Assembly: GCF_029227855.1 (NCBI RefSeq)
Contig: NZ_CP074356.1
Length of the DNA stretch: 64,000 nucleotides
Source: Escherichia coli
GTDB taxonomy: Bacteria > Pseudomonadota > Gammaproteobacteria > Enterobacterales > Enterobacteriaceae
Direction: 5' to 3' (one strand)
The notes beneath the pieces are model-generated. The model was not told the DNA's origin, ran no database searches, and saw only the letters and a program-made list of their open reading frames with translations. Of this stretch, positions 41,905 through 42,612 are shown in pieces (positions within the stretch are counted from its first letter, which is position 1; each line of letters starts with the position of its first letter). The translations under genes and the position numbers were made by a program.

Positions 41905-42612
41905 AAATATCCTCCGGCATAGCCGGAGGTTTTTCAAATGCGCCTATAAGGCTCTCTTACCAGCCGCGCCCTAACAGGCGCACACGATCTGACATTTGCA
42001 TCCAACTTCGTTACTTACGGCCCGTAAACGGGCTGCCCGGATAGGGAATCGATAACTGCTCTCCCATTTTATCCTCTTCAAGCTGGTGCTTTATGTAATC
42101 CTGTATCTTCGCCGTGTTCTTACCCACCGTATCGACGTAGTACCCTCTGCACCAGAACTCCCTGTTCCTGTATTTGAATTTCAAATCACCAAACTGCTCG
42201 TAAAGCATCAGACTGCTTTTCCCTTTCAGATATCCCATAAAGCCGGATACGCTCATTTTGGGCGGGATCTCCACAAGCATATGGATATGATCTGCACAGC
42301 ATTCAGCTTCCAGAATCCGTACACTTTTCCACTCACACAGCTTTCTCAAAATACTGCCTATTGCTCTACGCTTCTCTCTGTAGAACACCTGTCTTCGGTA
42401 TTTTGGCGCAAAAACTATGTGATATTTACAGTTCCATCGGGTGTGCGCTAAGCTCTTTTCGTTCCCCATTGGGACCCCCTTTTGATTTCTTGTTTGACAC
42501 TTGCAGTTGCCAGACCGCAAGGTGTTTTAACAAATCAAAAGGGGTTTTAATAACTGGCTTAAAGCTGAAAGCTTTCCGGAACCCCCAGCCTAGCTGGGGG
42601 TTTTCTGTGCAC
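41905..42612 (-). mobile_element. IS200-like insertion sequence (IS200/IS605 family), about 708 bp
   Basis: Contains a 152-aa Y1/HUH transposase ORF; left-end palindrome AACCCCCAGCCTAGCTGGGGGTT (42580-42602) and right-end subterminal hairpin CCTCCGGCATAGCCGGAGG (41911-41929); boundaries approximate (about +/-15 bp). Confidence 0.8.
42011..42469 (-). CDS. tnpA: IS200 transposase TnpA (Y1 HUH transposase)
   Basis: 152 aa from ATG 42469 (MGNEKSLAHTRWNCKYHIVFAPKYRR ... HIHMLVEIPP ...), recognised as IS200 TnpA; SD AAGGGGGT. Confidence 0.9.
   Translation of the reverse strand: MGNEKSLAHTRWNCKYHIVFAPKYRRQVFYREKRRAIGSILRKLCEWKSVRILEAECCADHIHMLVEIPPKMSVSGFMGYLKGKSSLMLYEQFGDLKFKYRNREFWCRGYYVDTVGKNTAKIQDYIKHQLEEDKMGEQLSIPYPGSPFTGRK

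Follow-up and report, generated by a model that had tools for sequence, protein, structure and literature searches.

Intact IS200C beside the malK-lamB-malM terminator of Escherichia coli: a typical insertion site and a candidate rule for terminator targeting

In a 64,000-nt stretch of Escherichia coli DNA (NCBI RefSeq assembly GCF_029227855.1, contig NZ_CP074356.1; hereafter the window), an insertion sequence (IS) lies between malM, the last gene of the mal operon, and yjbI, directly against the terminator of the operon. Why does the element sit at exactly this place, and does its presence matter to the genes on either side? We are highly confident that a copy of IS200C, a tnpA-only element of the IS200 group within the IS200/IS605 family, has landed in the malM-yjbI spacer, that this copy is young and intact, and that the outcome of the insertion is near-neutral. 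The element and its behaviour are already known, and the insertion is an ordinary one. The coordinates of the element, its ends and its neighbours are collected in Table 1.

Table 1. Features of the IS200C copy and its surroundings in the window (LE, left end; RE, right end).
Feature	Coordinates	Strand	Description or evidence
Complete IS200C insertion sequence	41902-42612	minus	711 bp; LE at 42612, RE at 41902
tnpA, intact 152-aa Y1 HUH transposase	42011..42469 (42469->42011)	minus	NF033573, PF01797
LE terminal decamer GTGCACAGAA	42603..42612	minus	leading GT and A-rich run kept across variants
LE subterminal perfect hairpin, IS nt 11-33, AACCCCCAGC-TAG-GCTGGGGGTT	42580..42602	minus	DNA fold, repeat search
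Rfam RF01405 STnc490, RNA family of the IS200 left end	42479..42602 (42602->42479)	minus	full-length match
tnpA 5'UTR stem-loop, IS nt 69-137, sequesters Shine-Dalgarno	42476..42544	minus	RNA fold, inverted repeat I2
RE: GAAAAA + hairpin CCTCCGG-CTA-TGCCGGAGG (41911-41929) + terminal tail ATATTTATT	41902..41934	minus	fold, repeat I3
malK-lamB-malM intrinsic terminator: 8-bp hairpin (42620-42639) + T7 tract (42613-42619)	42613..42639	minus	terminator scan; insertion target
malM, last gene of the mal operon, upstream of the IS, same direction	42672..43592	minus	RefSeq annotation of the near-identical locus L001, ORF list
yjbI ('SopA family protein'), frameshifted pseudogene	40152..41732	minus	start 169 nt downstream of the IS RE

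The initial annotation had read the 152-aa product of the element as a Y1 HUH transposase, and the family searches confirm this. TnpA matches NCBIfam NF033573 (IS200 transposase equivalog) at 1.9e-43 and 147.7 bits, against a cut-off of 55, and Pfam PF01797 (Y1_Tnp) at 4.4e-38 over the full length of the model (positions 2-121 of 121). It also aligns with the solved TnpA structures 2ec2, 2f4f, 2a6m (IS608) and 2xm3 (ISDra2). In particular, the HUH motif H61-I62-H63 is aligned to DHIHLFV of 2ec2, and Y125 (IQDYIKHQ) is aligned to IKKYIEEQ, the catalytic tyrosine being conserved. The reading frame is uninterrupted, and its translation equals the tnpA products of L001 and 13 other loci compared, which carry the RefSeq accession WP_000526135.1. 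RefSeq names the homologous gene 'IS200/IS605-like element IS200C family transposase', and our isoform call is a comparison with copies whose tnpA RefSeq labels IS200C family. No other ORF of the element has a family match; the remaining ORFs overlap, on either strand, and tnpB is absent. The length of 711 bp agrees with the ~0.7 kb expected of the tnpA-only IS200 group. The repeat search detected no terminal inverted repeats in the element, and the window holds no further copy of it. Collectively, all hallmarks of the IS200 group, and those of IS200 proper, that sequence analysis can address are present in the element.

Over 710/710 nt, the window copy agrees with those found at eight further loci of unrelated strains, which lie beside speC, adhE, potE, tkt and potD, near dmsA, on a plasmid and at one unannotated place. 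Being base-identical to IS200C elsewhere, it is therefore young and intact. The element is common in the species: 3,097/5,426 complete E. coli genomes contain it, at 10,728 places in all, the median per genome being 1 and the maximum 35. A degenerate remnant with a disrupted tnpA, which the initial annotation had considered, was ruled out, as tnpA and both ends are intact.

The exact ends and the target were obtained by comparison with strains that lack the insertion, as the initial annotation had suggested. On the malM strand, the empty site in M8 and K-12 MG1655 reads ...GGCGCACC-TTTTTTT-ATGCTTCC..., and the occupied site in the window reads ...GGCGCACC-TTTTTTT / GTGCACAGAA...GGAGGATATTTATT / ATGCTTCC..., where a slash marks a junction here and below. 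Comparison of the two gives an insert of 711 bp without target duplication, and the repeat search likewise found no flanking direct repeat. The IS sits exactly between the T7 tract and ATGC, so that CACC-T7-ATGC becomes T7/IS/ATGC. Thus, the element first described as ~708 bp at 41905-42612 is real and complete, but 3 nt at the RE had been missed. Because tnpA lies on the minus strand, the end that abuts the malK-lamB-malM terminator is the left end of the IS, as had been stated; in window coordinates, it is the right-hand side of the element. The joint between RE and LE is fixed independently by the head-to-tail dimers of IS1541 in Yersinia pestis, which read ...GGAGGATATTTATT/GTGCCCAGAAAA..., with the RE ending ...TATT and the LE starting GT (GTGC). 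The reported absence of the element from K-12 is in agreement with the empty site there and with a table in the literature in which IS200-derived RNAs are entered as missing from the K12 genome (PMC2943607).

Both ends of the element carry hairpins that fold better than shuffled sequence. As DNA, the LE hairpin folds at -11.7 kcal/mol (z -2.9) and the RE hairpin, complete as CCTCCGGCTATGCCGGAGG, at -10.0 kcal/mol (z -3.7); for each, 0/200 shuffles fold as well. The RE hairpin corresponds to the hairpin originally noted at that end. The perfect palindrome that had been called terminal is present and spans 23 nt, but it is subterminal, starting 10 nt inside the LE. By analogy with IS608, the LE hairpin is likely the hairpin bound by TnpA. 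Its 19-nt core is exactly conserved in at least 120 loci from many phyla, and the LE variants nearly all read GT......GAAAA. Similarly, the RE sequence is the same in all copies compared, and the terminator scan scored it as terminator-like on both strands. In addition, a palindrome, TTTTCTGTGCAC/GTGCACAAAAAA (inverted repeat I5), crosses the LE junction.

The left end is also structured as RNA. The fold of its first 153 nt contains helices at nt 11-33 and 69-137 (-60.5 kcal/mol, z -4.95), and the tnpA-sense strand matches RF01405 STnc490 at 146.1 bits (gathering score 56; E = 3e-31) over model positions 1-124 of 124. In the literature, art200/STnc490 is antisense to the IS200 5'UTR (PMC4513863). 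For Salmonella IS200, the LE structures are given as a terminator at nt 12-34 and a 5'UTR stem-loop at nt 69-138, and the nt 12-34 hairpin is a bidirectional terminator that stops impinging transcription (PMC4513863). IS200, like IS1541, has been known for a long time, and its protective terminator at the LE, its structured 5'UTR and art200 have all been described before (PMC4513863, PMC5435999). Salmonella IS200 and E. coli IS200C share the length of ~707-711 bp, a single 152-aa Y1 TnpA and the lack of inverted repeats and target duplication; the Salmonella element has the same LE hairpin (nt 11-33), the same Shine-Dalgarno-sequestering stem-loop (nt 69-137) and the same full-length STnc490 match. 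Compared with IS200 and IS200C, the window copy therefore shows no structural difference, and only its insertion site is rare.

To place the malM site among the targets of the element, we compared the flanks of many copies. At 11/12 other IS200C loci (L007-L018), and at 12/13 distinct E. coli sites, the LE directly follows a GC hairpin and a T-run, in a sample that is biased towards such flanks because the BLAST query held 25 nt of flank on each side. Two flank-independent samples were therefore drawn. The first, contigs that encode exactly the window TnpA, gave 10 places in E. coli. All 10 show a hairpin (-13 to -26 kcal/mol) and a T-rich run ending ..TT/GTGCAC, and in 9/10 the LE lies 37-65 nt downstream of the end of a gene that runs in the same direction. 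The second was a scan across phyla for the 19-nt LE hairpin core, with one genome per species, which gave at least 120 loci, including those of Y. pestis IS1541, Vibrio, Brenneria, Edwardsiella, Oxalobacter, Mailhella/Desulfovibrio, Bacillota, Elusimicrobia and Saccharibacteria MAGs. Among the matches listed, 94 are non-redundant IS200-like LEs; 25 of these come from one Y. pestis strain and ~14 from one Vibrio, so the 94 sites do not represent 94 independent element lineages.

In this second sample, the 40-nt flank folds at -8 kcal/mol or below for 93/94 LEs (98.9%, among the matches listed), compared with 21% of the controls, which were random positions with a T-rich tail, intergenic and genic alike. 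The median flank energy of the 94 LEs among the matches listed is -18.5 kcal/mol versus -4.5 kcal/mol for the controls (Mann-Whitney p = 2e-54). Again among the matches listed, T occupies position -2 in 93/94 LEs and positions -5 and -6 in at least 76/94. A strict detector of perfect stems (at least 5 bp) was positive at 65/94 LEs (69%, among the matches listed) versus 0.46% of random and 4.5% of T-tailed positions; its misses are imperfect stems, which led to the use of folding energies with matched controls. A convincing hairpin is missing at the E. coli copy inside ybiJ (L011) and at one or two sites of the cross-phylum sample (L040, L063). Collectively, the malM insertion is a typical site of the element and no peculiarity. 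As a side observation, RNAfold pairs upstream A-tracts with the T-tract, which makes the distance from the hairpin foot to the insertion point uninformative.

The general statement of the initial annotation, that IS200/IS605 elements target sites next to hairpins, is accordingly borne out by the censuses for the IS200 group; for the whole family, textbooks instead describe insertion on the 3' side of a specific short sequence (PMC5934647). An explicit statement in the literature that IS200 targets terminators was found only in a recent (2025/26) preprint, where terminators upstream of ISs are read as limiting transposase expression and favouring persistence.

A close parallel comes from IS1541 of Y. 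pestis and Y. pseudotuberculosis, which has the same LE hairpin core and the same RE hairpin and tail. Among the matches listed, 25/25 Y. pestis copies lie after a hairpin and a T-run. IS1541 differs at LE positions 5-6 (GTGCCC versus GTGCAC); in Y. pestis, moreover, its copy number is much higher and it forms tandem dimers. Odaert et al. (1998; J Bacteriol 180:178) reportedly noted stem-loops resembling rho-independent terminators at IS1541 sites as possible hot spots. In Yersinia, IS1541 has also been found between pheL and pheA (PMC3082878). IS608 of Helicobacter pylori and ISDra2, on which the mechanistic picture of the IS200/IS605 family is modelled, differ in their targeting: they share with IS200C the Y1 HUH TnpA, the subterminal hairpins and integration on the 3' side of a short sequence directly next to the LE, but they carry tnpB and need TTAC or TTGAT, with no target hairpin. 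In contrast, the target of IS200C is a T-run that almost always lies behind a GC-rich hairpin. Group IIC introns are said (Robart, Seo and Zimmerly 2007) to insert right after intrinsic-terminator stem-loops, where they do no harm and which they recognise as a single-stranded DNA structure. They are a functional analogue only, being unrelated retroelements with an RNA-based mechanism.

The known mechanism of IS608 offers a model for how such sites could be read. The IS608 transposase binds the subterminal hairpins, a tetranucleotide guide 5' of each hairpin foot reads the cleavage and target sites, and integration takes place 3' of the target in single-stranded DNA (PMC5934647). ISDra2 likewise has its guide 5' of the hairpin foot (PMC5934647), and IS200C is A-rich there at both ends, where guide pairing would be the equivalent. 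Directly 5' of the hairpin feet, IS200C and all its variants are A-rich (...AGAA-AA at the LE and ...GAAAAA at the RE), and both cleavage positions are T-rich (target ...TTTT/, RE ...TATT/). Moreover, the junction TTTTTT-GTGCAC-AGAAAA is self-complementary. Following the IS608 rule, the A-rich run of the LE decamer is a candidate guide for the T-rich cleavage and target site.

The insertion would proceed by single-strand 'peel and paste', with a circular top-strand intermediate pasted 3' of the T-rich target. As in IS608, the bases that recognise this target would be those 5' of the LE hairpin, here an A-rich stretch. The probable substrate would be the lagging-strand template, since the terminator is able to fold there. 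The lagging-strand template is a known substrate of the IS200/IS605 family. On the K-12 map, malM lies on the + strand at 4.25 Mb, and with the known positions of oriC and the terminus, it is co-directional with replication; consequently, the strand that carries the hairpin and the T's, which is also the top strand of the IS, is the lagging-strand template.

The right end of the element provides a further clue. The RE is built from an A-run, a GC hairpin and a T-rich tail, it was scored as a terminator, and in the tandem IS1541 dimers of Y. pestis, the RE itself has served as the target. In this light, an intrinsic terminator resembles an RE, whose hairpin and T-rich tail are followed by the cut at the end of the tail. 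We give an even chance to the reading that IS200-group elements recognise terminators as such, in that a GC hairpin with a T-rich tail of ~6-9 nt in single-stranded DNA would mimic the RE (hairpin + ATATTTATT), its T tract being read by the A-rich bases of the LE.

Alternatively, terminator adjacency could arise by survival and not by choice: IS200C would enter any T-rich site, and copies in harmless places shielded from transcription would persist. Places just past terminators are selectively safe, the preprint mentioned above interprets upstream terminators in terms of persistence, and the copy inside ybiJ shows that other sites are possible. We nevertheless regard this explanation as rather doubtful. 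It has to account for an association that is near-total (98.9% among the matches listed versus 21% of T-tailed random positions, and 10/10 in E. coli) and precise to the nucleotide (..TT/GT), and that holds in the pseudogene-rich Y. pestis, where hairpin-free neutral T-runs should abound. In addition, the RE, with its hairpin and T-rich tail, serves as the target in tandem dimers. Both this targeting of the RE and the near-completeness of the association favour direct recognition over survival.

At the malM terminator, IS200C is present in 5/5,426 complete genomes (Ec-2939, B19429, PCP06238, ECOCN22 and P15-25), always at the same nucleotide position and in the same orientation. In 4,247 genomes, a match covers 80% or more of the reconstructed empty site, a count that includes places with an IS in the spacer (e.g. 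H31, H37), most listed rows being contiguous ~797-nt pieces. Fixation of the insertion in all close relatives, which the initial annotation had raised, is not what we observe, as relatives show the empty site. The carriers fall into two IS haplotype groups, a master type and a 53G/290C/371G/485A type that also occurs at the unrelated ybiJ site, and their RE junctions hold two or three T. On the yjbI side, the yjbI allele of four carriers is intact and diverges by ~7%; the window differs from Ec-2939 at 46/2,598 nt and equals the IS-free M8 over 1,750 nt. Because the carrier flanks and the IS haplotypes differ, the site was probably hit repeatedly, and repeated independent hits at one preferred site are probably the most economical reading.

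A single old event, inherited by the five or six carriers and later spread or shuffled by recombination or gene conversion, would readily explain the shared insertion point and orientation, as well as the identical IS and identical 900-nt malM flank of the window and Ec-2939 and the identity of L003 and L005 on both flanks. However, we consider it quite improbable: the carriers are only five of 5,426, with empty sites in close relatives of each flank type; they differ in IS haplotype, in the T count at the RE junction and, by up to 7%, in the yjbI-side flank; and the window copy is young, being identical to copies elsewhere.

Finally, we considered the effect of the insertion on its neighbours. 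The mal terminator folds at -15.1 kcal/mol as RNA and -8.0 kcal/mol as DNA, and its hairpin and whole T7 tract remain intact after the insertion. The 169 nt 5' of the yjbI start are unchanged, and the promoter/terminator scan found no sigma-70-like promoter that leads out of the IS in the direction of yjbI. Measured against the 526-aa allele, which is intact, yjbI in the window carries a -1 indel at ~41555 and a +1 indel at ~41477. The same defects are present in IS-free M8 and K-12 and are therefore unrelated to the IS; the annotations of Ec-2939 and M8 mark the gene as frameshifted, and that of K-12 lists a pseudogene. Since yjbI is frameshifted whether or not the IS is present, any regulatory effect would probably be of no importance, and the effect of the insertion on yjbI is probably none. 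The initial annotation had proposed that the IS alters read-through into yjbI or its expression, by separating the gene from the mal terminator or by signals of its own; although the IS does lie between malM and yjbI with two extra terminator-like hairpins (LE and RE), the former of which is reported for IS200 to stop impinging transcription (PMC4513863), this is very improbable, because read-through was limited beforehand by the intact hairpin and T7, no promoter-like site points out of the IS, the yjbI upstream region is unaltered and any change would hit a pseudogene. Terminator efficiency or residual transcription of yjbI may still be slightly affected. The insertion would thus be essentially neutral, with the mal terminator kept and the IS shielded from read-through transcription.

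For the locus itself, the significance is small: this is a strain-specific neutral insertion, of use for little more than marking a lineage or urging care in assembly. The one lead beyond earlier knowledge, a mildly novel one, is the precision, the consistent orientation and the phylogenetic breadth of terminator homing, together with the model of RE mimicry and guide reading. If direct recognition is true, it would explain the nucleotide-precise, co-oriented insertion in ~99% of copies (among the matches listed) from at least five phyla, and it would amount to a safe-harbour strategy, with a testable structural rule by which Y1 transposases choose their targets. Annotation pipelines would gain a cheap aid for fixing IS200 ends and for flagging functional terminators. 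IS200 would then be a structure-guided terminator-homing DNA transposon, a DNA counterpart of group IIC introns, and this would account for the harmless build-up of an element that is rarely caught transposing.

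Over the IS and the 900-nt malM flank, the window does not differ from Ec-2939, which also carries IS200C at malM. In contrast, on the yjbI/ubiC side (window 39519-41631), 46 of 2,598 nt differ, and the differences begin 271 nt from the IS. At these positions, the window matches the IS-free strain M8, while Ec-2939 matches K-12. Because the IS and malM flank are shared but the yjbI/ubiC side diverges, either a recombination breakpoint near the IS or two independent insertions would account for the two loci. At the right-end (RE) junction, two T residues lie between ...ATATTTAT and ATGC in the window and in L003, L004, and L006, three further E. 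coli loci with IS200C at malM, compared with three in Ec-2939 and ECOCN22. This variation could reflect slippage, another cleavage position, or a different length of the target T-tract.

The yjbI reading frame beside the element carries a 1-nt deletion at about 41555 and a 1-nt insertion at about 41477, spaced 78 nt apart, and the yjbI genes of K-12 and M8 have the same defects. An intact allele of 526 aa is present in other lineages (L003-L006), with a DNA divergence of about 7%. Among the matches to the reconstructed empty malM-yjbI site in complete E. coli genomes (H37, H76, H77), IS1A lies in or near the spacer in CUPS03 and YF-1, and IS2 in E3; hence, this region tolerates several IS families. 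On the other side of malM, the Rfam naRNA4 (RF02564) matches score 36-42 bits, below the family's gathering score of 59.5, and look like REP/BIME palindromic units. Within the element, the Rfam STnc490 match is on the tnpA-sense strand; STnc490/art200 has been described as antisense to the tnpA 5'UTR (PMC4513863).

Features of the malM-yjbI region
Feature	Window coordinates	Strand	Remark
yjbI ('SopA family', pentapeptide-repeat protein)	40152-41732	(-)	split by two indels
RE junction	41902-41904		
STnc490 match	42479-42602		
lamB-malM spacer	43653-43800		three naRNA4 matches, all sub-threshold

In Yersinia pestis NCTC5923 (L114, L116), the relative IS1541 forms head-to-tail tandem dimers, with the RE (...GGATATTTATT) directly against the left end (LE; GTGCCCAGAAAA...). 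These dimers represent either insertion beside the right end of another copy or a trapped junction.

Genome contigs were scanned for the 19-nt LE hairpin core, CCCCCAGCTAGGCTGGGGG, with loci L019-L100 among the matches listed. In Ruminococcus and Eubacteriales MAGs (L045, L101-L111), the 19-mer lies in a different repeated context (..AATAAGCAT, the 19-mer, TATTTCTT..) without the IS200 LE signature, and may belong to another mobile element with the same palindrome. At five loci where the left end is typical of IS200 (L044, L061-L063, L099), no IS200 right end was visible in the stretch 655-760 nt downstream; each of these may be either a longer derivative or a solo left end. Among the matches listed, the core is exact in IS200-like elements of multiple phyla, the taxa being Pseudomonadota, Desulfovibrionaceae (Mailhella), Bacillota, Elusimicrobia, and Saccharibacteria MAGs, and the variable part of these left ends is the 6-7 nt separating the terminal GT from GAAAA. 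Collectively, an exact 19-nt core near a variable stretch of 6-7 nt points to strong constraint or wide horizontal spread.
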